A DNA stretch of 33,485 bases from a virus (Duplodnaviria > Caudoviricetes), in the IMG/VR virus record IMGVR_UViG_3300020388_000007, positions 1 through 33,485 of that record, one strand, 5' to 3'. Shown here piece after piece: positions 21,980-33,485 of this stretch. The number at the start of each line of letters is the position of its first letter. The first letter of the stretch is position 1. The translations under genes were made by a program, and so were the position numbers. The notes below the pieces were generated by a model, which made no database searches, had not been told where the DNA came from, and was given only the letters and a program-made list of their open reading frames with translations.

Positions 21980-22681
21980 ATGGATAAGATTCTGGTCATT
22001 TCTGACCTTCACATCCCATATCACCATCCTGACAGCTTTCGCTTCTTAAATAAGTTAAAAAACAGATATGACTGGGATAAGGTCATCAATATCGGTGATG
22101 AGATGGATTGGCATAGCATTAATGTAAGCCATGTTATTAACCCAGATCTACCTTCGGCAGCTGATGAACTTGAAGTAGGTAAGTTTTGGATTAAGAAGTT
22201 AGAGAAGATGTATCCTGATATGATCTTACTAGAATCTAATCATGGATCTATGGTACTACGCAGAGCCATGGCTAAAGGGATGTCTAAGTTCTTTTTAAAA
22301 GATTATAATGAAATACTAGATGTATCATCTCGGTGGAAGTGGAAAGAATATCATTGGGAAAATAATACACTCGGTAGGATATACTTTGCACATCAAGTAT
22401 CTAAGAATATTGTTAAGTCAGTACAACTGATGTCTGCTTCGGTATGCCAAGGGCATTATCACACGCAGTCAAATATAGAGTATGTTGGTAATGACTTTCA
22501 TTTAAACTGGGGTATGTCAGTAGGTTGTCTTGTAAATAAACAATCATTAGCTATGGCATATATGAAGATCAATGTAGCTAAACCAATACTATCTTGTGGT
22601 TGTATCATTAATGGTGTACCATACTTAATACCAATGTTATTAAGGAAGGATGGTTCTTGGGATGGGCAGATATACATTTAA
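21980..22681 (+). CDS. Calcineurin-like metallophosphoesterase
   Basis: ISDLH, IGDEMD, SNH, AH and GHYH motifs; probable start is ATG 21980. Confidence 0.85.
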   Translation: MDKILVISDLHIPYHHPDSFRFLNKLKNRYDWDKVINIGDEMDWHSINVSHVINPDLPSAADELEVGKFWIKKLEKMYPDMILLESNHGSMVLRRAMAKGMSKFFLKDYNEILDVSSRWKWKEYHWENNTLGRIYFAHQVSKNIVKSVQLMSASVCQGHYHTQSNIEYVGNDFHLNWGMSVGCLVNKQSLAMAYMKINVAKPILSCGCIINGVPYLIPMLLRKDGSWDGQIYI

Positions 22682-22949
22682 AGATAAAAAATATTTTAAT
22701 AAAATAATTGAACATGGATGTTGTGTACCTGGATGTACATCAAACACTCCTATGAATGTTCATCACTTACGAGGATCACAAGTACAATTTAAAAGATCTA
22801 ATCATCTTGTAGTACCATTATGTTTTGAACATCATTCAGAACTAACATGGGGTAAACATAAACCAGAGTTTAAGTTTTGGGATTACTATGACTTTGATGC
22901 CTTAGAATATGCTAGTGAATTGTATGACCAGTACTCTCAACAACATTAA
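22662..22949 (+). CDS. Zn-binding HNH-like nuclease (Ref/DUF968-like)
   Basis: GCCVPGC...VHHLR...VVPLCFEHH pattern. Confidence 0.7.
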   Translation: MGRYTFKDKKYFNKIIEHGCCVPGCTSNTPMNVHHLRGSQVQFKRSNHLVVPLCFEHHSELTWGKHKPEFKFWDYYDFDALEYASELYDQYSQQH

Positions 22950-23133
22950 TACTCTTTACTTTTTTCATTATAGATTTACCAATGTTCTTAGATTCTTTTT
23001 CTCCTGTTAGATACATAGCAGTAACAGCATATGCACAGAAGATTGTTTCATCATCATATCCGAACTGAGTTAGATACTTAGTATAATCAGTTAAGGTTTC
23101 TATTAGCTCATCAAGTTGAGATTTTAATACCAT
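22912..23133 (-). CDS. Hypothetical protein, probably leaderless transcript
   Basis: 73-aa ORF with a promoter-like sequence ending 6 nt before the ATG. Confidence 0.6.
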   Translation of the reverse strand: MVLKSQLDELIETLTDYTKYLTQFGYDDETIFCAYAVTAMYLTGEKESKNIGKSIMKKVKSINVVESTGHTIH

Positions 23134-23139
23134 GTAGTA

Positions 23140-23168
23140 TATATATGGCTTTGTTTATAACATGTCAA
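23140..23168 (-). promoter_or_regulatory. Putative sigma70 promoter
   Basis: Minus strand TTGACA-N17-TATATA-N6-ATG. Confidence 0.6.
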
Positions 23169-23169
23169 T

Positions 23170-23413
23170 TCATGTACCTGGAATAATTTAATGGCTTTTC
23201 CAGGATGACCTTATTGCTTCGCCCTTACACACCAACCATATAACACTACATATTCCCCAACAACCTAGCTAGGTGAAGGTTCTACCTTACATAACGCAGA
23301 GGAAACTTTCTGTGTAGGCGTGTAGCCACCAGCTTTTGCCTTACATATAACCTCTGGCTCAATGCTTTACGCTCACTACCTAATGTCTTTCCTACACAGT
23401 TCCATATGGAAAC
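23170..23413. ncRNA. Candidate structured non-coding element
   Basis: Stems CTGTGTAGG/CCTACACAG and CCTGGAA/TTCCAGG, two perfect 12-bp palindromes, three CCTTACA repeats; no convincing ORF. Confidence 0.35.
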
Positions 23414-23743
23414 TTATCTATCTCTACTGATCTCACTAAAAGCATTTGTTTCTTTATGTATAAAATATAACATATGCCATACTGCTATATCATATGGTTT
23501 ACGAGCAGTTTTGCAGAAAGTAAGTTCATTATCTTTTTTGTATTTATTAATAACAAATGTTTCATGGTCTAAATCATGTTTAGATAAACCATTAAAGATA
23601 ATAACATTATCATGGTCTATATAAGTAGATTCTATAATATGGGGTTCTAAAATATCTGAAATATAACTATATTCTTCTAAAACTTTTAACCATTCTTTAT
23701 CAGTAAAATCATTTGTATGTGTCCAATAATTTGTATACCCCAT
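23414..23743 (-). CDS. Hypothetical phage protein
   Basis: MGYTNYW...FNG...HETF...FCKTARKPYD motif pattern; operonic with ssb. Confidence 0.75.
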   Translation of the reverse strand: MGYTNYWTHTNDFTDKEWLKVLEEYSYISDILEPHIIESTYIDHDNVIIFNGLSKHDLDHETFVINKYKKDNELTFCKTARKPYDIAVWHMLYFIHKETNAFSEISRDR

Positions 23744-23746
23744 TAT

Positions 23747-24160
23747 TTAAAATGGGATATCTGGAATATCATCATCAGGTAGTGCATCTTTATTGACAGA
23801 TTCAATAGATTTATCTTGCTTACCACCTAACATCTTCATAATACCAGAGTATCTAGGTATTAGAATTGATGTATTATATTTCTTGTTACCACTACTGTCT
23901 GTATACTGTGATACATCTATCTGACCTTCAAGGTATAATAATGTACCTTTAGTTACATAGTCTTTAATAGTCTTAGAAAGATTAGGATCAAATGTAACTA
24001 CTTTATGCCAAGTAGTTTTGTCTTTCATTTGTTGTGTATCTTTATCTCTTACTTTTTCAGTAGTAGCTACAGACATTGTAGCCATCAATGTACCACTTTT
24101 AAGTGTTTTGATTTCTGGATCTGTACCAGTTCTACCTACAAGTATTACTTTATTTATCAT
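23747..24160 (-). CDS. ssb: Single-stranded DNA-binding protein
   Basis: INKVILVGRTGTDPE, TTWHKVV and KGTLLYLEGQI motifs; acidic DDIPDIPF tail. Confidence 0.95.
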   Translation of the reverse strand: MINKVILVGRTGTDPEIKTLKSGTLMATMSVATTEKVRDKDTQQMKDKTTWHKVVTFDPNLSKTIKDYVTKGTLLYLEGQIDVSQYTDSSGNKKYNTSILIPRYSGIMKMLGGKQDKSIESVNKDALPDDDIPDIPF

Positions 24161-24650
24161 TAGTTAGTACCTCCTGTACTTTTGATTTATCTACATTACC
24201 TTTGTATTTTTCTTCAAGCTGTTTCACATATTTGTTTGAATCAAACATACCCATGAATACATCAGCATTGAATCCTAAATGTGATAGTGCTTTTGTTAGT
24301 GCATCTGTTAATGCTTTCTTTGGTGCATCATCATCTACCCTACCTTTACCATCTACTAACAAGTTACAACCTCTTACTGGTCCGTATGCCATCTCTGGTT
24401 TACCAACCCATATAACTACATCAGCAAATTGAAATGCTTTGTTGTCATGTGTTAGAGTATCATACTTGACACTATACCCCCAACCAGTACCAACTGGTCC
24501 GAAGATCTCTGTAGCTCGTCTGATTTGATAGTGAGCATCAATAGAAGTAAAACTCCTAGCTCCAAAGGATACTTTTTTAGTAAACCTCGGATCAGTTTCT
24601 TTAGCTTCATCCCATATATTAAGATTTTGAGTTTTAGTATTGTCATCCAT
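24150..24650 (-). CDS. Rad52/Sak-like single-strand annealing protein
   Basis: ATEIFGPVGTGWG and KKALTDALTKALSHLGFNADVF motifs; located between exonuclease and SSB. Confidence 0.75.
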   Translation of the reverse strand: MDDNTKTQNLNIWDEAKETDPRFTKKVSFGARSFTSIDAHYQIRRATEIFGPVGTGWGYSVKYDTLTHDNKAFQFADVVIWVGKPEMAYGPVRGCNLLVDGKGRVDDDAPKKALTDALTKALSHLGFNADVFMGMFDSNKYVKQLEEKYKGNVDKSKVQEVLTNDK

Positions 24651-25247
24651 TTATATTACCTCCTCAATAGATTGAAAATCAACATAGTCATCTGGAGCAA
24701 CATCCTTCTCCACATGTAATGTCCAGAACTGATGTTCTGCATTCAGCAACTTCCTCTGAAATTTTTTGTCTTGTGAAACAATAAATGCTTTCCATCTTAC
24801 ATTACCAAATATTACTGATAACCATGCTTTAGTTTTGTTAGCTACCATCATGTAATGCTGTACTTGAGCATAATATTTTTCAAGTATTGTATCATCTTTA
24901 GTCATCATATTAGTATGTTTAGCTTCAAAGATACCCATAGTCTTGAGATCTTGATTCAAAACAAAACCATCTACATTAGCTAACATAAATGGATAGTCTT
25001 TATGTACTAATGTATGATCTATTTCTTGAACTGGAAAATCGGTATGTGCTGTAAACCATTCACGATTGAATGATTCAGTATAAATACCAAGCTGTACTGG
25101 TAATATAAAAGATAAATCTTCTTGTTCTGATGTACCTTTTTTTATTTCATATAGTTCTTTCCACTTACCAGCTGCTAGATAAGTAGCATCACTCCCTCCG
25201 ATCCCTGAGTTTCTGTCTATAACGCTCTTTTGATTCTGTATATTCAT
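24651..25247 (-). CDS. YqaJ-like (lambda exonuclease family) recombination exonuclease
   Basis: GIGGSDA, LANVDG, FEAKH and YYAQVQHYM motifs. Confidence 0.9.
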   Translation of the reverse strand: MNIQNQKSVIDRNSGIGGSDATYLAAGKWKELYEIKKGTSEQEDLSFILPVQLGIYTESFNREWFTAHTDFPVQEIDHTLVHKDYPFMLANVDGFVLNQDLKTMGIFEAKHTNMMTKDDTILEKYYAQVQHYMMVANKTKAWLSVIFGNVRWKAFIVSQDKKFQRKLLNAEHQFWTLHVEKDVAPDDYVDFQSIEEVI

Positions 25248-25512
25248 TGACCTTCCTCTCTACAATGTTTTCAATGTCAGTTTTTTTCTTCCATAGTGCA
25301 TCAGCTAATCTCTTAGCAGATGGATCTCCGTCTATTAAACCTACTCTTAGTTTGTATTCTATCTCACGATCAAACCAAACTCTAGCTAAATAGCATACTT
25401 TTTTTATCCACCATCTCTTTCTTTGTACTGGATCTGAAAGATTATACTTGACTGTTTTTTTCTTTAGTCTTTTATTTCTTACAAATCCTTTAACTAAATC
25501 ATTTGCTGTCAT
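25189..25512 (-). CDS. Hypothetical basic protein
   Basis: 107-aa ORF overlapping its neighbours. Confidence 0.65.
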   Translation of the reverse strand: MTANDLVKGFVRNKRLKKKTVKYNLSDPVQRKRWWIKKVCYLARVWFDREIEYKLRVGLIDGDPSAKRLADALWKKKTDIENIVERKVNEYTESKERYRQKLRDRRE

Positions 25513-25714
25513 ACTGATTTATTAATCTATCTATATACCAACGAGCTTTCTTTAGATCTTGTGTTGGTTTATCAGGGTACTTGTGTCTGTTTCTTATTAC
25601 ATACTTGATGATGTTTGCTTCGTGATGATTCAATTTAAATTGTTCTATAACATCTATAACTTGAATCGCTGGTCCAATGTAATAGCCTGGATCAATGGGA
25701 TTTATTTTCTTCAT
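25499..25714 (-). CDS. DUF3310 protein (T7 gp1.7-like nucleotide kinase family)
   Basis: IQVIDVIE...ANIIKYVIR...DLKKARWYIDRLI; SD GGAGG. Confidence 0.85.
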   Translation of the reverse strand: MKKINPIDPGYYIGPAIQVIDVIEQFKLNHHEANIIKYVIRNRHKYPDKPTQDLKKARWYIDRLINQYDSK

Positions 25715-25853
25715 TATTCCTCCTGTTGTAACATTTAATACATGTGTATTCTCTGTAGTCTATCATCATAGCTTTAGTCCATTTCTTTTTACAGACAATA
25801 CATCTTTCTAATACTAACATATGTTGTGGTACGACACCTCTTTTTTTTCCCAT
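25692..25853 (-). CDS. Small zinc-finger protein
   Basis: CIVC...CIKC. Start placed at ATG 25853 because the upstream region is a hairpin. Confidence 0.55.
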   Translation of the reverse strand: MGKKRGVVPQHMLVLERCIVCKKKWTKAMMIDYREYTCIKCYNRRNNEENKSH

Positions 25854-25867
25854 AATGTTTATGTGTT

Positions 25868-25921
25868 GAGGGCAACCATGCGGAGGAAGGAGATCATATA
25901 CTATGAAGTTCGATTGCCCTC
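25868..25921 (-). ncRNA. Hairpin with anti-RBS/anti-start loop (candidate antisense regulator)
   Basis: Stem GAGGGCAAUCG/UGGUUGCCCUC with a 32-nt loop containing CAUAGUAUAUGAUCUCCUUCCUCC. Confidence 0.5.
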
Positions 25922-25930
25922 TATCTTGTT

Positions 25931-26725
25931 TTAGTGAAACCACCGACAGTTTGCAACCTTTCTTTCACGATCATATCTAGTATTAACTGAATCACTTGGG
26001 TAGTGTGTACTCCAATGTGTGATAGCTTGGTATGCACTAAACTTGTTCTCACCAAATTCTCTAGCATAGTTCTGATCATACTGATCTTGTATGTATCTCT
26101 TATGTTGTTGATTTACATGACTTTTATCAGTCCTTGTAGGTTGTAAGCATAGCTTATCTACTTCATAACTGAACTCACCATAGTTTACATCTTCTGCAAT
26201 CCAGTTCTCCATACTGTTCTTAACAGTCTTAAGTCTATCGATTGCATCATACTGATTAGGTATTTGTAGTTTGATATCTCTAGTACCTTTGTGTTGTGAA
26301 GATAAAGATAAATCCCATAAAGGATTTCTCATACCATTCATACATAGCCATAGATAGAAACCTAAATCAAACTTGAATGATCTCATACCATTGTAGCTGT
26401 TCCACATCACAGCTTCTAAAGATATCTGTGTATCTCTAAATGGTATTACATATTCTGGTAGTGTAAATCTAGTAGCCATTACTGCACCATTGTTAGAATG
26501 TCTGTGTTCTTCTTCCATACCATTAGTATTGAAGTTATCTTGTAAGAACTCATATGACATTTCATATGCATCATTGTGAGTAATAACTCTGTATGTATCT
26601 TTGTGTACAGCAATCAACTGGTTGTTTGTATCGTGTACTAATTGTTTGTATCCATCAATCTTAGATCCGTGTTGATTGTATACATCTTCCTGACGTACAG
26701 GAAACTCTAGTTCTGTTGGTAGCAT
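25931..26725 (-). CDS. DUF932/DUF945-like protein
   Basis: YRVITHND, WNSYNG...LWLCMNGM and NKFSAYQAITHWSTH motifs; SD AGGAG. Confidence 0.75.
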   Translation of the reverse strand: MLPTELEFPVRQEDVYNQHGSKIDGYKQLVHDTNNQLIAVHKDTYRVITHNDAYEMSYEFLQDNFNTNGMEEEHRHSNNGAVMATRFTLPEYVIPFRDTQISLEAVMWNSYNGMRSFKFDLGFYLWLCMNGMRNPLWDLSLSSQHKGTRDIKLQIPNQYDAIDRLKTVKNSMENWIAEDVNYGEFSYEVDKLCLQPTRTDKSHVNQQHKRYIQDQYDQNYAREFGENKFSAYQAITHWSTHYPSDSVNTRYDRERKVANCRWFH

Positions 26726-26733
26726 AGCTCCTC

Positions 26734-26949
26734 CTATTCAACTGTTATAATTATCTCATCTCTATCTGAGTAAGTAGTTCCTTCAAACTCAATAAGAATA
26801 CTTGATATCTTTTTAAACTCATGTTTCTTGAACTCTCCCTCTTCAGATGTTCCATGATATACTCTAGATGCAAACTTAATATTTGCATTAGGTGATATCC
26901 TATTTACTTTACACATTAGATCTTTAAACATTTCTGCATTACACTTCAT
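26734..26949 (-). CDS. Hypothetical protein
   Basis: ATG 26949 has an AAGGA SD; the ORF-track start 26967 has none. Confidence 0.55.
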   Translation of the reverse strand: MKCNAEMFKDLMCKVNRISPNANIKFASRVYHGTSEEGEFKKHEFKKISSILIEFEGTTYSDRDEIIITVE

Positions 26950-27244
26950 GTAGTTTTTCCTTTCCATAATAATCTTTAGGTAACTGAAAACCCTTGACTA
27001 TCCTTATTTCTAAAGCCTTGAACATAATATTCTCAACTTCTTTTCTGCCTTCAGTCATAGCCATCTGCTTGGTATCCCAATCAGTTCTATGTTGTGGACC
27101 TAGTACACTATCATCAACAGTCAATCTCCATTTAGTAATACTGTGTTTAAAGTTAGACTTTATCTTTACAATATTAACAACGATCACTTGATCTTGACCA
27201 TAAGATATAGTTGCTTGGTAATGTCCTGGTCTGATGCTTTTCAT
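26939..27244 (-). CDS. Hypothetical protein
   Basis: 101 aa; SD GGGGG upstream. Confidence 0.65.
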   Translation of the reverse strand: MKSIRPGHYQATISYGQDQVIVVNIVKIKSNFKHSITKWRLTVDDSVLGPQHRTDWDTKQMAMTEGRKEVENIMFKALEIRIVKGFQLPKDYYGKEKLHEV

Positions 27245-27246
27245 TC

Positions 27247-27507
27247 TTACCCCCTTGTTTCAAATCGAAACTCATCTAACTGTTTAAGCCACTGCTCTAC
27301 AGTCTTGATGTCCTTAGTTAGTTTATCTCTTAATGATTCAAACTCCTCTAATATTTCATTTTCTATCAGATACAATTCATCTAACTCATTGAGTGCTTGT
27401 ATCCTTCCATTAAGAATAGCATCATGTGGTTGTTTGATTGATTCTCTTACTTTGTTTCTTTGATCCCACAATCTTGCTTTTAAAATCTTTAATCCTTCGG
27501 TATTCAT
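27247..27507 (-). CDS. Hypothetical coiled-coil protein
   Basis: ATG 27507 with SD GGAGG. Confidence 0.65.
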   Translation of the reverse strand: MNTEGLKILKARLWDQRNKVRESIKQPHDAILNGRIQALNELDELYLIENEILEEFESLRDKLTKDIKTVEQWLKQLDEFRFETRG

Positions 27508-27637
27508 TAGCACCTCCTGTACCATTACACATATCACATGTGTCTGAACTCTCTGGATTATTCCAATCTATTATTAATCCAAGTCCAAGACATCTGATAC
27601 ATTTATTCTTTGTATGGTTCTGGAATGTAGTTTTCAT
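27422..27637 (-). CDS. Small protein with DnaJ-type zinc finger
   Basis: Two CxxCxGxG motifs (CIRCLGLG, CDMCNGTG). Confidence 0.6.
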   Translation of the reverse strand: MKTTFQNHTKNKCIRCLGLGLIIDWNNPESSDTCDMCNGTGGANEYRRIKDFKSKIVGSKKQSKRINQTTT

Positions 27638-27836
27638 CTTCAAACCTTTCTCTAACCATCTCTTTGATTTCTTGTGTGTAGATTAGCTTTACTCCATCTT
27701 GAAGCATCTGCTTGACACATGAATCTTCTAGATCTTGATAAGTATCATAGTGTTCATAGTATTTTAAGTAGATCACATCAAACTTGTCTAGCTCATCTTG
27801 TGTGAAACTATCTGCTGGTTCTGGTAATTTTGTCAT
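27603..27836 (-). CDS. Hypothetical acidic protein
   Basis: 77 aa, TAATG-coupled, SD GGAG. Confidence 0.65.
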   Translation of the reverse strand: MTKLPEPADSFTQDELDKFDVIYLKYYEHYDTYQDLEDSCVKQMLQDGVKLIYTQEIKEMVRERFEDENYIPEPYKE

Positions 27837-28150
27837 TACTTTCTCCTTGATTTAGTTTTCTTAATATCTGGTTCTGGTATGTCCTTCAATGTAATTGCAA
27901 TCTTTGTAATCCTATTACATAAGAATACTAGACCAACCCATATAGGTGCTGCTACAACTGACATAATCAATGTAGGATTGATACCGAAGAACAAACTGAA
28001 AGCAATAAGTCCTCCACCAAGACCAATATAAAATAATACAAACGTACCTAGATATTCAGCATTGTTTCTGAACTTGGTAGTCATTAGTGTTTTTAGTAGA
28101 TACTCGAAAAACTTGTCAAAGTATCCAAATAGTATAGACATGCTACGCAT
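27836..28150 (-). CDS. Early membrane protein (2 predicted TM helices)
   Basis: Two hydrophobic segments, a basic C-terminal tail, and a strong SD GGAAGGAG. Confidence 0.7.
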   Translation of the reverse strand: MRSMSILFGYFDKFFEYLLKTLMTTKFRNNAEYLGTFVLFYIGLGGGLIAFSLFFGINPTLIMSVVAAPIWVGLVFLCNRITKIAITLKDIPEPDIKKTKSRRK

Positions 28151-28186
28151 AATATAACTCCTTCCGTAACCTATAATATCAAAAGC

Positions 28187-28258
28187 ATTCGGTATTAGCT
28201 ACTTTAATCCGAATTTTTTTTTGTAAGAGAATGCCAAGCCACTTGTGCCTGGCATTCT
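28187..28258. terminator. Pair of intergenic hairpins (terminator/processing sites)
   Basis: ATTCGG/CCGAAT followed by a T-run on +. AGAATGCCA/TGGCATTCT extends to 12 bp with G-U on -. Confidence 0.5.
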
Positions 28259-28273
28259 ATACACGATTGTTTA

Positions 28274-28777
28274 TTAGAATCCTACCATTTCTGATACGAT
28301 TCTTTTCTTTTCTGCCATTTCTTCAGGTGTCATATTGGACTGTGTCCTCATCTTACCTATTGATGGCTTTGCCACTTTCCTCTCAGTCCACTTCATCTGA
28401 TAAAGCTGTTGATATAAATCACTACATGCTTTGTGTATAGCTGTGTATTTATCCTCCAATGCTTTCCAAGTTTGTGCCTGTTCAATCATATTGTCATGGT
28501 TGATAGTACTGATTTCTGTACCATTAGGTGCTTGTCTTTCATCTGTAAATGTAGACTCTAGCTGATCTTTCCAATACTGTGCATTCTTTGCAAATGATTG
28601 GATACTCTTGTATGTACTGTTGCATAACTGCCACAATAGTAGATCTGTGTAAACACGATCTATCTCATTTGATTCATCAACTAGACTGCCTACCCATTGG
28701 GTCCAGTCCTGTGTATTGTGGTAGTGAATACCATCAATAACATTAGTATTTGTAGTTAGTTTAGTAGGTTGTTTCAT
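28274..28777 (-). CDS. Hypothetical protein
   Basis: 167 aa; SD GGAGG. Confidence 0.75.
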   Translation of the reverse strand: MKQPTKLTTNTNVIDGIHYHNTQDWTQWVGSLVDESNEIDRVYTDLLLWQLCNSTYKSIQSFAKNAQYWKDQLESTFTDERQAPNGTEISTINHDNMIEQAQTWKALEDKYTAIHKACSDLYQQLYQMKWTERKVAKPSIGKMRTQSNMTPEEMAEKKRIVSEMVGF

Positions 28778-28931
28778 CTAATACCTCCATATTTTCATCA
28801 AACTCATCTGTACTATTTACTATCTGTGCATACTCTCTGAACAACTTAGCCTCATCTGGCTTACCTTCTTCATCAGCTTTTCTAGCTTTATCTAGTAATT
28901 CTAGAAATTTGATATCATTCCAATCAGTCAT
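28761..28931 (-). CDS. Hypothetical 56-aa protein MTDWNDIKFLELLDKARKADEEGK... (not in ORF track)
   Basis: SD AAGGAG 6 nt before ATG 28931; fills the gap between two minus-strand genes. Confidence 0.65.
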   Translation of the reverse strand: MTDWNDIKFLELLDKARKADEEGKPDEAKLFREYAQIVNSTDEFDENMEVLDETTY

Positions 28932-29106
28932 TTTGATCTCCTTTTCCTTTTAATATCTGCTCTTGCAGTTCCTCTATGGCGTCATGCCATCCTTTGTAAT
29001 AATCCCAAGTTTCATCAGAATCATAACATTTAGATAGTGCATCTTGTTTCTTCCACTTCATATTATTCAGTAGAATCCAACAAGTTTTTGTATCAAGATT
29101 TTCCAT
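28924..29106 (-). CDS. First early gene, hypothetical 60-aa protein
   Basis: SD AAGGAG; YYKGWHDAIEEL motif. Confidence 0.65.
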   Translation of the reverse strand: MENLDTKTCWILLNNMKWKKQDALSKCYDSDETWDYYKGWHDAIEELQEQILKGKGDQND

Positions 29107-29113
29107 AGTATAA

Positions 29114-29495
29114 TCTCCTTTCTTGATTCTTGATTAAAGCATAGTCTTTAGTCCTTGTTTGCGAGGAACGAGCTTATCATATTGATCGCAGTCTACTTGG
29201 ACTGTCGTCAAGATGACGATCTTTCGTGGTTCAGCGATACTTATCGCAGCGAAAGATTGCTAGGACTACTATGATATAATTGAGAATCAAGAGAGAGAGA
29301 TAGCACTGAAGATCATACAGGCGTAAGCTGACTGCTTGGCAGTCAAGATAAGAAGGATCGAGAAGTGCCAGTCCTGTGGACTGACTGTCTGATACACCTC
29401 GAATCTAAAGGTGAAAGGGAGAGTTTGAGAGGGAAGGGGAACACATCCCTCTCATCAGAGATGCAAACGAGTATCGTTGATACAAACGTTTACAA
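29114..29495 (+). ncRNA. Large multi-domain folded element (ncRNA or ssDNA origin/pac structure)
   Basis: Long-range stem 29114-29155/29262-29298 enclosing several hairpins, plus more hairpins to about 29490; G-T pairs favour the + strand. Confidence 0.5.
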
Positions 29496-29502
29496 TTTAG
29501 TG

Positions 29503-29530
29503 CTTGACATGGTTACGTTCATGTTTACAT
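29503..29530 (+). promoter_or_regulatory. Putative sigma70 promoter for terS (leaderless)
   Basis: CTTGAC-N16-TTACAT ending 8 nt before ATG 29539; no SD. Confidence 0.5.
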
Positions 29531-29538
29531 CTATCGTA

Positions 29539-29925
29539 ATGGCAAGAACACAATTAGGCAAGAAAGATGGTTTGACATACAAACAAAGAGCATTAGTTGA
29601 TACCCTCGTAGCAACAGGATGTACCATAACCGAAGCCTCTCAGAAGGCTGGTTATTCTAAGGGAGAAAGTGGTAGAGTAGTAGCTAGTAGGACACTACGA
29701 TTGCCAAAGGTACAGGCGTACCTACAACAGGAAGTGTCCAACAAGTTAGGACTAGGATCAGTCCACGCATCCTCTACTCTTCTACACTTAATACAAAATG
29801 GGAAGAGCGAGTATGTTAGACTGGAAGCTAGTAAGGATCTCCTAGATAGGATAGGGATGAGAGCTCCTGATAAGGTACAACACCAGGTCGCAGGAAACAT
29901 CTCTATCAACATAGACTTAGATTAG
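29539..29925 (+). CDS. terS: Terminase small subunit
   Basis: LTYKQR...TEASQKAGYS...ASRTLRLPKVQAYL HTH pattern, RLEASKDLLDR, and terminal ISINIDL. Confidence 0.85.
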   Translation: MARTQLGKKDGLTYKQRALVDTLVATGCTITEASQKAGYSKGESGRVVASRTLRLPKVQAYLQQEVSNKLGLGSVHASSTLLHLIQNGKSEYVRLEASKDLLDRIGMRAPDKVQHQVAGNISINIDLD

Positions 29926-30033
29926 GATACGGGGGTTTGAAATATGCAAAGACATAAGAGGAAAAGGTCCTATACAAACAATATAGTTGAAAAAAGCACT
30001 TCAAAAAAATATTTATTATAGTAAGGTTCGATC

Positions 30034-30291
30034 ATGGCAGATCCTCGAATAAAGAGAGCTGGAGTAAGTGGTTTTAATAAACCTAAAAGAACTCCTGGAC
30101 ATAAGACTAAATCACACATAGTGGTAGCTAAGTCTGGAGATAAAGTTAAGACTATTAGGTTTGGACAACAAGGAAAGACAGGAGATAGAACTATGACAAA
30201 GAGAGCAAAGTCTTTTAAGGCAAGACACGCCAAGAATATAGCGAAAGGTAATATGTCAGCTGCATACTGGGCGAATAGGGTGAAGTGGTGA
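30034..30291 (+). CDS. Small basic phage protein
   Basis: 85 aa, K/R-rich; KTIRFGQQG...SFKARH...SAAYWA...W. Confidence 0.75.
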   Translation: MADPRIKRAGVSGFNKPKRTPGHKTKSHIVVAKSGDKVKTIRFGQQGKTGDRTMTKRAKSFKARHAKNIAKGNMSAAYWANRVKW

Positions 30292-30455
30292 GTACAGTTA
30301 ATAAAGCTGGGAACTATACTAAACCCACAATGAGAAAGAGAATCTTTCAAAGAATAAAATCAGGAACAAAAGGTGGTAATGCTGGACAGTGGAGTGCGAG
30401 AAAGGCACAAATGTTAGCAGTTGCTTATAAGAAAGCTGGAGGAGGTTATAAATAA
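30288..30455 (+). CDS. Small basic protein (DUF5872-like; not in ORF track)
   Basis: GTG start; MSTVNKAGNYTKPTMRKRIFQRIKSGTKGGNAGQWSARKAQMLAVAYKKAGGGYK. Confidence 0.75.
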   Translation: MSTVNKAGNYTKPTMRKRIFQRIKSGTKGGNAGQWSARKAQMLAVAYKKAGGGYK

Positions 30456-30622
30456 TGGGAAAAACAAAACATTACTTCAAGAATGGTACAGAGTACAAAG
30501 GAGCTACACACAAGATGCCTAATGGATCATTACACAGTGGTAAGACACATGGTTCTGGCAGTAAAGTTGTAGTACATTTTAAAGATTTAAGTGCTAGTTC
30601 TAAGAAAAAAGCCAAGGCATAA
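30455..30622 (+). CDS. Small basic His-rich protein (not in ORF track)
   Basis: MGKTKHYFKNGTEYKGATHKMPNGSLHSGKTH...; TAATG-coupled on both sides. Confidence 0.75.
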   Translation: MGKTKHYFKNGTEYKGATHKMPNGSLHSGKTHGSGSKVVVHFKDLSASSKKKAKA

Positions 30623-30870
30623 TGGCTCTAGCTAAATCTCAACGTAGTTTAAAGGCTTGGTCTAAACAGAAATGGAGAACCAAGTCAGGGAAACCCAGTG
30701 CAAAAACTGGGGAAAGATACTTACCAGAAGCAGCAATCAAGTCATTGACAGATTCTGAGTATGCGTCTACTACTAGAGCTAAGAGAAAAGGCACTAGAAA
30801 AGGTAAGCAGTTTGTTAAACAACCTAAATCTATTGCAGCAAAAACAAGAGCATATAGGAGTATAAAATAA
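30622..30870 (+). CDS. Small basic protein
   Basis: 82 aa; QRSLKAWSKQKW...ERYLPEAA...GKQFVKQP. Confidence 0.75.
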   Translation: MALAKSQRSLKAWSKQKWRTKSGKPSAKTGERYLPEAAIKSLTDSEYASTTRAKRKGTRKGKQFVKQPKSIAAKTRAYRSIK

Positions 30871-30977
30871 TGTATGGAATGAAAAAAGCCAGTGGATCTA
30901 AGAAGCTAAAAGGTAAACAAAACAAATTACCACCAGCTTTAAAGAAAAAAATTATGGCAAGTAAAAAGAAAAAGTAA
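30870..30977 (+). CDS. 35-aa Lys-rich peptide (not in ORF track)
   Basis: MYGMKKASGSKKLKGKQNKLPPALKKKIMASKKKK; SD GGAG, TAATG-coupled. Confidence 0.65.
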   Translation: MYGMKKASGSKKLKGKQNKLPPALKKKIMASKKKK

Positions 30978-30987
30978 GGAGCTAGTT

Positions 30988-31095
30988 ATGTATAATAAAT
31001 TACTAGATCGTTGGAATAACCTTAATAAAAAAGGTAAGACTTTAGTTGTTGCAGTAGCTGTTATTATAGTAATTGTAATAGTACAGTCTGCATGA
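30988..31095 (+). CDS. 35-aa single-TM peptide (not in ORF track)
   Basis: SD AAGGAG; MYNKLLDRWNNLNKKGKTLVVAVAVIIVIVIVQSA; ATGA overlap with the next gene. Confidence 0.65.
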   Translation: MYNKLLDRWNNLNKKGKTLVVAVAVIIVIVIVQSA

Positions 31096-31289
31096 CACAA
31101 CAATACGCACAGGATCTTATATCTTTTCAAGACAGAATGAAGTTAAGAAAGATAGTTAAGAAGGTACATTTCTCTCATTATCCTAAAGAATTTATTACAG
31201 ATAAAGAAGCAGATATGTTTATTGAATCGTTACTACCAGATACTATTTACAAGTTAATTAAAGCTGGTACTGATTCCAATACTGTGTGA
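31092..31289 (+). CDS. Hypothetical protein
   Basis: 65 aa, coupled to the terminase large subunit gene. Confidence 0.7.
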   Translation: MTQQYAQDLISFQDRMKLRKIVKKVHFSHYPKEFITDKEADMFIESLLPDTIYKLIKAGTDSNTV

Positions 31290-32809
31290 GTGGACTAGAT
31301 TACAAAGCACCTGGAGAAGTTATTAAATCCTTTATGAAGGATAATAGCTTCTTTAGAGGTGTCCGAGGTCCAGTAGGATCAGGCAAATCAGTATCTTGTT
31401 GTATAGAAATATTTAGAAGAGCTGCCAAACAACAACCATCTCCTGATGGTAAGAGAAAATCTAGATGGGCAGTAATCAGAAACACAAACCCTCAGTTAAA
31501 AACTACTACCATGAAAACATGGTTAGATTGGTTTCCAGAAAATTTATTTGGTAACTTTACTTACTCAGTACCTTTTACACATCATATAAAGATTAATGAT
31601 ATTGAGTTAGAAGTTATATTCTTAGCATTAGATAGACCAGAAGATGTAAAGAAACTACTGTCATTAGAACTAACAGGAGTATGGATTAATGAAGCTAGAG
31701 AGATTCCTAAATCTATTGTAGATGCTTGTACTATGCGTGTAGGTAGATTTCCATCTATGAAAGATGGTGGACCTACATGGTATGGTGTTATAGCAGATAC
31801 AAATGCACCAGATGAAGATCATTGGTGGTCCATAATGTCTGGTGAAGTACCAGTGCCAGATCATATGAACCAAGAAGATTCATTAATGTTAGTCAAGCCT
31901 GACAACTGGAAATTTTTTGTACAACCTCCAGGCATGATAGAAAAGAAAGAAGATGATAAGATTAAAGGTTATGAACTAAATACAACAGCAGAAAACATTA
32001 AGAATGTTACTCCTGAGTATTATAGTAATATTATTAGAGGTAAATCAAAGTCATGGATAGATGTTTATGTTTTAAATAGATTAGGAACTATAGAGGATGG
32101 AAAGTTAGTCTATGGTTCATTTAGAGAAGATACACATTTAGCTAGTGAGAATATAGAATTTGCAGATACTACAGTATATATAGGTTTAGACTTTGGACTA
32201 ACACCTTCTGCTGTATTTGGACAGAAACTTCCTGATGGTAGATGGATTATAAACCATGAGTTAGTTTGTTTTGATATTGGTACAGTTAAGTTTAGTGAGA
32301 TGCTAAAGTATGATATAATTAAATACTGTGCAGATAAAGATTTAAAAATATTTGGTGATCCAGCTGGTGATTTTAGGGCACAGACAGATGAAACTACTCC
32401 TTTTCAGATACTTAGACAGCAAGGTATACAAGCCTTTCCAGCACCATCAAATGATGTAGCTCTACGAATCGAATCAGTAGAATCTGCATTGAACAGGATG
32501 GTTGATGGTAAAGCTGGATTTTTACTATCGCCATCCTGTAATCAGTTAAGAAAAGGTTTTTTAGGTGGGTATCATTATAGAAGAATACAAACATCTGGCG
32601 AAAGATATGAAGATAGACCAAATAAGAATAAGTTTTCTCATGTCCATGATGCACTACAATATCTTATGTTAGGAGCTGGAGAAGGAAGATCATTGACTGT
32701 AGGATCACAAAAACAAGGTGTTACAAATGTTTACAAAAGTTGGGATCTATATAATAGAAATGCTGTAAATAAAAGGGGAAAATGGGATATTTACCGAAAG
32801 AATGGGTAG
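31286..32809 (+). CDS. terL: Terminase large subunit
   Basis: Walker A GPVGSGKS, Walker B VWINEARE, DTN coupling motif, nuclease GLDFG, GDPAG and HVHDALQY. Confidence 0.95.
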   Translation: MSGLDYKAPGEVIKSFMKDNSFFRGVRGPVGSGKSVSCCIEIFRRAAKQQPSPDGKRKSRWAVIRNTNPQLKTTTMKTWLDWFPENLFGNFTYSVPFTHHIKINDIELEVIFLALDRPEDVKKLLSLELTGVWINEAREIPKSIVDACTMRVGRFPSMKDGGPTWYGVIADTNAPDEDHWWSIMSGEVPVPDHMNQEDSLMLVKPDNWKFFVQPPGMIEKKEDDKIKGYELNTTAENIKNVTPEYYSNIIRGKSKSWIDVYVLNRLGTIEDGKLVYGSFREDTHLASENIEFADTTVYIGLDFGLTPSAVFGQKLPDGRWIINHELVCFDIGTVKFSEMLKYDIIKYCADKDLKIFGDPAGDFRAQTDETTPFQILRQQGIQAFPAPSNDVALRIESVESALNRMVDGKAGFLLSPSCNQLRKGFLGGYHYRRIQTSGERYEDRPNKNKFSHVHDALQYLMLGAGEGRSLTVGSQKQGVTNVYKSWDLYNRNAVNKRGKWDIYRKNG

Positions 32810-33222
32810 TTTTTTTTTACGATCCACCTAATGAGGAATGGTATCATATCTTTAGAAAAAAAGGAATGGCTCATTGTGGAGCTTGTTATTTTGATACACA
32901 AAAAAATGTATGGGTAATTATAGAACATATACATAAAAGGATTGATATATCTTTATTACAAGGATCAGAAGTAGATAAAGTATTTGGATTTATACTAGCT
33001 AACAATGGAGTATTTTTAAAAACTAAAAGATTTAAACATAAATGGAGATTATTCCAAGCTGCATGGTTAAGAGAACATAGTTGTGTAACTATAGTTATGA
33101 GATTAATTGGAATAAATAGATTGATTATTACACCTTTTCAGTTATATAAATACTTAATAAAGAATGGAAGCACCAAATGGGCATTTTTAGAACACCAAAA
33201 TACAAACCAGATCCAGAGCTAG
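32782..33222 (+). CDS. Hypothetical protein, possible permuted papain-like fold
   Basis: AHCGA...HSCV...ITPFQLYKYL shows His-before-Cys order. Confidence 0.6.
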   Translation: MGYLPKEWVVFFYDPPNEEWYHIFRKKGMAHCGACYFDTQKNVWVIIEHIHKRIDISLLQGSEVDKVFGFILANNGVFLKTKRFKHKWRLFQAAWLREHSCVTIVMRLIGINRLIITPFQLYKYLIKNGSTKWAFLEHQNTNQIQS

Positions 33223-33389
33223 AAAAAAAGCTAAAAGAAGAAAGAGAAAGAGAAGAAGAAAAAAAGAAAGAATTAGAAGCTAAAGAAAAAAGATTTAAAG
33301 AAAGATTTGCTAAAGGTGTTATTGGTCAAAGAAGTTTATTCAGTAGAGCTGGTGGTCAAGGTTTTTATACAGATGGGGAACAAACATAA
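33177..33389 (+). CDS. Small charged coiled-coil protein
   Basis: 70 aa; GQRSLF motif; coupled to the downstream gene. Confidence 0.7.
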   Translation: MGIFRTPKYKPDPELEKKLKEEREREEEKKKELEAKEKRFKERFAKGVIGQRSLFSRAGGQGFYTDGEQT

Positions 33390-33408
33390 TGGGATCTAAT
33401 ACTTCAGC

Positions 33409-33485
33409 ATCAGGAGGAATGGCATCTTCTACTGGAGGTACACCAAAAGCAATTAATGAAAATGCTAAAATAAAAAGAGCTGGAA
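33409..33485. repeat. Terminal direct repeat (copy 2); circular-assembly overlap
   Basis: Identical to 1-77. A 77-bp overlap is typical of a de Bruijn assembler closing a circle. Confidence 0.95.

Follow-up and report, generated by a model that had tools for sequence, protein, structure and literature searches.

A conserved RNA hairpin with an anti-Shine-Dalgarno loop downstream of the DUF932 gene in a phage family, and its candidate targets among early genes

Which transcripts could the loop of a small RNA hairpin, encoded at positions 25868-25921 (minus strand) of a phage genome, recognize, and what could such pairing achieve? The window, i.e. the whole stretch of 33,485 nucleotides analyzed here, corresponds to a complete, 33.5-kb virus record bounded by direct terminal repeats. 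The plus strand carries podovirus-type portal, capsid, tail-tube and terminase genes; the minus strand holds an early block, to which the hairpin and the early genes described below belong. The closest cultured match is the Pelagibacter phage Hodr (capsid 60% identical, exonuclease 40%, similar layout), and SAR11 is therefore probably the host. Thirteen early-region proteins were searched against Pfam. The hairpin is located directly after the stop of a DUF932 gene (25931-26725; PF06067, E 2e-9) and is followed on its 3′ side by a small cysteine-containing ORF, a DUF3310 gene, a 107-aa ORF, a YqaJ/RecE-like exonuclease gene (24651-25247; PF09588, E 1e-16), a gene with a weak Rad52-like match under the cut-off (PF04098, E 0.005) and an SSB gene (PF00436). 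The original prediction, made from the letters of the window, presented the loop as antisense to the initiation regions of the earliest genes in a phage without recognizable protein repressor. In line with this last point, no repressor or integrase family was found among the 54 phage proteins scanned.

Sequence inspection and folding confirmed on the minus strand (25921-25868) the 11-bp outer stem, with its two G-U pairs (pairs 9 and 11), and the 32-nt CU-rich loop. The minimum free energy is -15.8 kcal/mol (z -2.35, with 5 of 200 shuffles equally good), and z reaches -2.79 when the flanks are included. The genome contains two 11-bp stems with loops of 20-45 nt, and only the one at 25868-25921 has a CU-rich loop. 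The loop is not fully open: in the predicted fold, an inner 5-bp helix, UCAUA/UAUGA (25894-25906), would conceal its anti-AUG part, leaving about 15 CU-rich nucleotides unpaired (UCUCCUUCCUCCGCA). The segment CCUUCCUC (25883-25890), predicted to be unpaired, is complementary to the Shine-Dalgarno sequence (SD) of the YqaJ exonuclease gene, and the segment UGAUCUCCUU (25887-25896) to the SD of a small gene starting at 28931 and partly to that of gene 29106. No Rfam family was detected at the hairpin when the region 22500-33485 was searched with E values up to 5, the one match elsewhere being a chance snoRNA, and a promoter and terminator scan revealed no terminator at the hairpin and no excess of sites. 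Hodr has neither such a hairpin nor a DUF932 match, and a scan of genome contigs for a host or prophage copy gave one weak unrelated match. We found no paper on this hairpin, which may sit among the unnamed candidates of a viral RNA survey comprising 10,006 of them (PMC10690425).

A search with an 18-nt loop pattern retrieved 29 viral stretches, each directly after a DUF932 homologue, and further loci were gathered by protein searches. The locus set comprises 174 records with sufficient downstream DNA, many of them being the same contig twice. All 150 records whose DUF932 is at least 50% identical contain the hairpin, in 32 distinct versions, and the distance between its start and the first base of the DUF932 stop codon is 8-12 nt in every one of these homologues. 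Pairs 1-10 are paired in 32 of the 32 distinct hairpins, with double-sided changes at pairs 3, 6, 8, 9 and 10, and the alternation between G-U and Watson-Crick pairs works on the minus strand only. In clade A, 99.5% of the cells pair, a value reached by none of 500 shuffles, although the rows are related; for the inner helix, 98.5% of the cells are paired, with one double-sided change. Using the stem pattern alone with a free loop, we detected 49 new loci, 38 after DUF932 genes and 11 in unrelated contigs; the loop is CU-rich in all of the former and in none of the latter. The stem is thus rewritten via compensatory changes while the loop remains anti-Shine-Dalgarno, and the AU-rich flank immediately 5′ of the stem is retained across all types. 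A model built from a MAFFT alignment, which contains no base pairs, matched only the window among 18 sources. We conclude that this phage RNA hairpin is real and conserved, and that it is apparently uncatalogued.

Such conservation could reflect a role of the stem alone, as a nuclease site or a stabilizing barrier in the early mRNA, the loop being a relic inverted ribosome binding site (RBS) without pairing role. The constant stem length (10-12 bp) fits this explanation. In clade A, moreover, identity reaches 91-92% over the final 120 nt of DUF932, as compared to 63-80% upstream, and part of the conservation therefore reflects a recent exchange of the block. Nevertheless, the loops are anti-SD across differing stems and at lengths of about 20-41 nt, and they co-vary with specific SDs as described below. 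We consequently hold a purely structural stem to be very unlikely, and with it the relic that the original prediction had offered as its own alternative. Another explanation places the function on the plus strand, which in clade A reads as a strong SD, a spacer and an invariant ATG, and could thus initiate an antisense minigene. The length of the corresponding frame, however, varies within clade A, some phages having 2 codons and others about 25, the plus-strand SD of the B1, B3 and C loops is not followed by an ATG, the G-U pairs require the minus strand, and the inner helix accounts for the invariant CAU. An antisense minigene is, in our opinion, extremely improbable.

The two targets initially named were the SD-to-AUG regions of the first early gene (gene 29106; 29104-29120) and of a membrane-protein gene (gene 28150; 28148-28165). 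Both pairings are present, the first one with 17 Watson-Crick pairs (9+8) and a 2-nt bulge. In a ranking over 58 curated start regions (mean -11.8, sd 4.4), gene 29106 comes first with -23.3 kcal/mol, the strongest start-region duplex in the genome, followed by the late gene 30455, the membrane-protein gene, YqaJ and gene 28931, hereafter gX. Outside these start windows, however, stronger duplexes are found within terL at +32671 (-29.0) and at +1/+33401 (-24.4). Furthermore, the named targets are real pairings but clade-specific ones, and the YqaJ SD and gX had been missed. Of the near-complete genomes, gene 29106 or 28931 is top-ranked in 4 of the 5 from clade A and in none of the 4 from clade B. 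A comparison of own and other pairings for gene 1 in clade A (16 pairs) gave p 0.004, as one of 16 tests; the value for clade B was 0.11. Covariation of the loop with the membrane-protein gene is weak (-0.57, rank 5 of 32).

The match had also been said to cover the spacer and the start codon in addition to the SD. These pairs exist, but with a fixed loop core they are no better than expected by chance, and the match is lost in other clades. With the core fixed and the rest of the window's loop shuffled, the energy to the first two genes was matched in 15-26% of 200 trials; in genome G001, shuffling the 5′ part around a fixed core matched the energy to genes 1 or 2 in 33-60%. Under a fixed core with the rest shuffled, some start region attained the observed energy in 30-57% of trials. 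When the core was shuffled too, none of 200 trials attained the energy to the first two genes, and some start region did so in 11-18% (window). The comparison of shuffles with and without the core therefore designates AUCUCCUU as what points at the first two genes. The spacer adds at least 3 paired bases in 7 of 15 clade-A combinations of loop and first gene (p about 0.013-0.018, with related rows). The anti-AUG extension hence amounts to modest evidence, the inner helix being another reason for the CAU to be invariant.

The best co-varying target is located elsewhere, at the SD of the YqaJ exonuclease gene, GAGGAAGG (25251-25258), 632 nt downstream of the hairpin on the same strand. When accessibility was counted, the YqaJ start region was placed in the top 2-14% in each of the 9 near-complete genomes and was the most consistent among the families present in all nine, clade C being absent from this genome set. 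YqaJ ranked first of 32 orthologous start-region families (-2.01, sd 0.65; next -1.33), and its type-level covariation (-2.30, 14 loci) is stronger than that of every one of the 196 homologous coding windows, whose values average 0.04 (sd 0.35) and go down to -1.22. The loop-target covariation sought among relatives is thus present, but its foremost target is the YqaJ SD, over six loop types. Types A and B1 combine the loop CCUUCCUC with the SD GAGGAAGG, type B2 the loop CCUCCUC with GAGGAGG or GAGGAG, type B3 UUCCUC with GAGGAA, type C1 ACUCUCC with GGAGAGU and type C2 ACCCUCC with GGAGGGU. The C1 and C2 SDs differ by AGA versus AGG, which is synonymous in the overlapping ORF; AGG is a rare choice there (13 of 203 AGR codons). 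Contiguous Watson-Crick pairing of 6-8 bases was found in 36 of 36 distinct combinations of loop and YqaJ SD.

Only about three independent concerted changes lie behind this pairing, the hairpin and its YqaJ target are linked and co-inherited, and SD function demands the GAGG core regardless of any loop pairing. Four B2 combinations display only 6 contiguous pairs, B3 loops fit B2 sites (7.0) better than their own (6.0), and clade-D loops do not match their own YqaJ site. Within clade A, where loop and site are both invariant, there is no YqaJ covariation (p 0.96).

A second co-varying target is AAGGAGAUCA (28934-28943), the SD of the small acidic gene gX (28761-28931). Its covariation, -1.77, was computed separately because clustering into 32 families had split the gX family. 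With G-U pairs allowed, 9-12 contiguous pairs were obtained in 19 of 19 clade-A combinations; 11-12 contiguous pairs were found in 4 of 8 B2 combinations, and several B phages show only weak pairing, with values of about -8. The gX proteins are acidic, about 55-65 aa long and encoded at a conserved position; the one at 28761-28931 matches no PHROG or Pfam family, and an Atlas search gave no match of at least 0.9. Covariation disfavored other targets, namely an HNH-like late gene (0.11), a gene encoding 167 aa (0.71) and the SD of DUF932 itself (-0.43).

These results bear on the idea of a generic anti-SD RNA directed against many strong RBS, mainly those of host mRNAs, whose phage matches would be a by-product of SD similarity. 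In its favor, UUCCUCCGCA is common to clades A and D, though clade D has no matching phage start region, duplex energy by itself singles out no dominant phage target for clade-B loops, and a late gene (30455) is second-ranked in the window. Generic pairing, however, accounts neither for loops that follow the YqaJ and gX sites from clade to clade nor for the absence of tracking in most other families, and seems to us distinctly unlikely.

Alternatively, the element could remain in the mRNA and work only in cis: a ribosome terminating at DUF932 would open the stem, and the freed loop would pair with the YqaJ SD, 630-1150 nt downstream, coupling exonuclease synthesis to DUF932 translation. This would agree with the offset of 8-12 nt from the DUF932 stop, fixed in 150 of 150 records, and with a nested fold of 710 nt that favors an open stem and predicts pairing of the loop with the YqaJ SD (probability 0.89). 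It would also agree with a recombinant locus (L042:3628-3706) in which the hairpin moves with the downstream block. Here a DUF932 of type B is followed by a hairpin and an exonuclease of type A, indicating that the block recombines as a unit, and its loop has gained an extra CCUCC module. Nested folding, however, is unable to represent a loop paired while its stem is intact, gX covaries nearly as strongly from about 3 kb upstream, and the same slot is filled in distant relatives by arrays of separate RNA modules. Long-range coupling restricted to the same mRNA is therefore an unlikely alternative. A switch acting on the SD of the downstream gene was rejected, being possible in only 14 of the 32 hairpins.

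The explanation that we prefer, and consider reasonably probable from these sequence comparisons, is that the hairpin is a multi-target antisense translational repressor of phage early genes, acting by base pairing. The original proposal of a downstream RNA silencing the earliest genes keeps its anti-SD class, backed by stem covariation, loop conservation and loop-target covariation, but its targets turn out to be clade-specific; an antitoxin-like role has no support, no toxin family being found among the targets. The hairpin would be made within the early polycistronic mRNA, because no terminator-like site separates it from the exonuclease gene on the same strand. In 8 metatranscriptome runs the region is covered by assembled contigs, which may include DNA. 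The hairpin may then be excised at its AU-rich 5′ flank, which we take to resemble an RNase E-type motif, and accumulate as a stable small RNA. The unpaired CCUUCCUC would seed pairing at an SD and keep the 30S subunit from loading. A point against this is that the YqaJ SD is embedded in the 3′ end of ORF 25189-25512, whose translating ribosomes would sweep across it. In the clade of the window, melting of the inner helix could let the pairing reach the start codons of genes 29106 and 28150. The whole would constitute a built-in timer, early recombination and takeover proteins being damped while early RNA builds up.

More distant loci show what can occupy the same position. Among the 24 records with less than 50% DUF932 identity, 8 (clade D) have a shorter hairpin carrying UUCCUCCG, and most of the others have arrays of other structured RNAs in the hairpin slot. 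Such arrays were observed after the stop of a DUF932 gene about 40% identical in L097:1300-1950, L100, L101, L102, L103, L104, L167, L168, L170 and L173. They span roughly 250-650 nt and appear to be made of structured RNA modules, which are shuffled between phages. The modules are separated by AAGUUU or GAGUUU, and most arrays end in a shared hairpin and an A-run before a probable helix-turn-helix gene. The similarity of these spacers to the AU-rich flank of the hairpin suggests processing. Most modules match no Rfam family; manA-like RNAs were recognized at L097:1500-1680, L168:2221-2400, L167:6997-7176 and L100:6970-7150 (E 5e-7 to 4e-5; 34-40 bits, under the gathering score of 55.2). Whereas the manA RNA is read as cis-regulatory in PMC2864571, the manA-like RNAs of the arrays sit among other RNAs and not directly before a metabolic gene. 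In L310 and L312, which represent a more distant phage group, two long hairpins without a clear anti-SD loop are located about 1370-1470 nt upstream of the YqaJ match, before a similar helix-turn-helix-like gene.

Other RNA features were observed in the early region of the window. A second GC-rich hairpin (28231-28261, early strand) is followed by a run of nine A, and a short inverted repeat (28183-28211) lies just before the membrane-protein gene; these may represent a processing site together with an internal promoter or operator. A 28-nt inverted repeat (29118-29295; 82% complementary, 122 nt apart) brackets the structured leader of the first early gene. The corresponding leaders of relatives are different ones that also look structured.

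Taken together, and with less confidence than we place in the repressor itself, we suggest that apparently lytic marine podoviruses may time their early program via a modular small-RNA cassette at the 3′ end of DUF932. This cassette would be a bispecific anti-SD loop co-evolving with the exonuclease and gX RBS in close relatives, and, in distant ones, an expanded array of structured and processed RNAs in shuffled order, manA-like RNAs among them. If true, temporal control would be exerted by RNA only in a phage without recognizable regulator protein. To our knowledge, early-gene shutdown in lytic phages lacking their own polymerase or repressor is mostly unexplained. The 54-nt element offers exact pairings together with natural compensatory variants, and would link an anti-Shine-Dalgarno hairpin, in a phage family that probably infects SAR11, to the regulation of a recombination exonuclease.

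Several known systems resemble the hairpin. In the T7 gene 1.1/1.2 mRNA, an RBS is masked by a 3′ segment located at an RNase III site; this is likewise a long-range anti-RBS pairing in a podovirus early mRNA, with a single target in the T7 case. In the icaR mRNA of S. aureus, according to PMC3868564, an anti-SD motif 3′ of the gene pairs at long distance with the SD of the same gene. Here, in contrast, the best target lies four genes downstream: the SD of DUF932 (GGAGGA in most A and B phages) is a moderate partner of the loop, at rank 12 of 58, with the covariation of -0.43 given above.

In Staphylococcus, the unpaired C-rich motif of RsaE pairs with the RBS of several mRNAs and blocks initiation (PMC2790875). 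The hairpin shares with RsaE/RNAIII-type RNAs an unpaired C-rich motif suited to several RBS, and would similarly block initiation. It differs from them in being phage-encoded, a single hairpin inside an early operon with the phage's own genes as targets. The UCCC motif of these RNAs is absent from the loop, which has UCCU and UCCG, both predicted to be unpaired. The cuckoo (CcsR / ar14) RNAs of Alphaproteobacteria, as described in PMC4615179, consist of 2-4 adjacent hairpins, each bearing CCUCCUCCC. They too combine variable compensatory stems with a conserved anti-SD loop, probably in the same host class. The phage genome, however, contains a single such hairpin, with no Rfam match, and its loop, of 20-41 nt across the family, varies with the phage targets; CCUCCUCCC occurs in none of the 32 distinct loops, the nearest sequences being CCUCCUCCU and CCUCCUCCA in clade B.

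The likeness to the P1 C4 antisense RNA, with a different structure, had been noticed from the beginning. According to PMC8198154, the P1/P7 C4 RNA (RF01695) serves lysogeny from a c4-icd-ant operon. C4 is a phage RNA whose target sites lie in its own operon and which limits the expression of downstream genes; the hairpin would follow a similar logic, the complementary YqaJ SD being located downstream on the same strand in the same string of genes. The target here, however, is the SD of an exonuclease gene; no RF01695 match was obtained, and the 54 proteins include no ant, icd, integrase or repressor family. No such case was found in the accessible part of a review of phage small RNAs (PMC12197685). 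The hairpin would thus act like the RsaE, cuckoo and C4 RNAs, yet it belongs to none of them.
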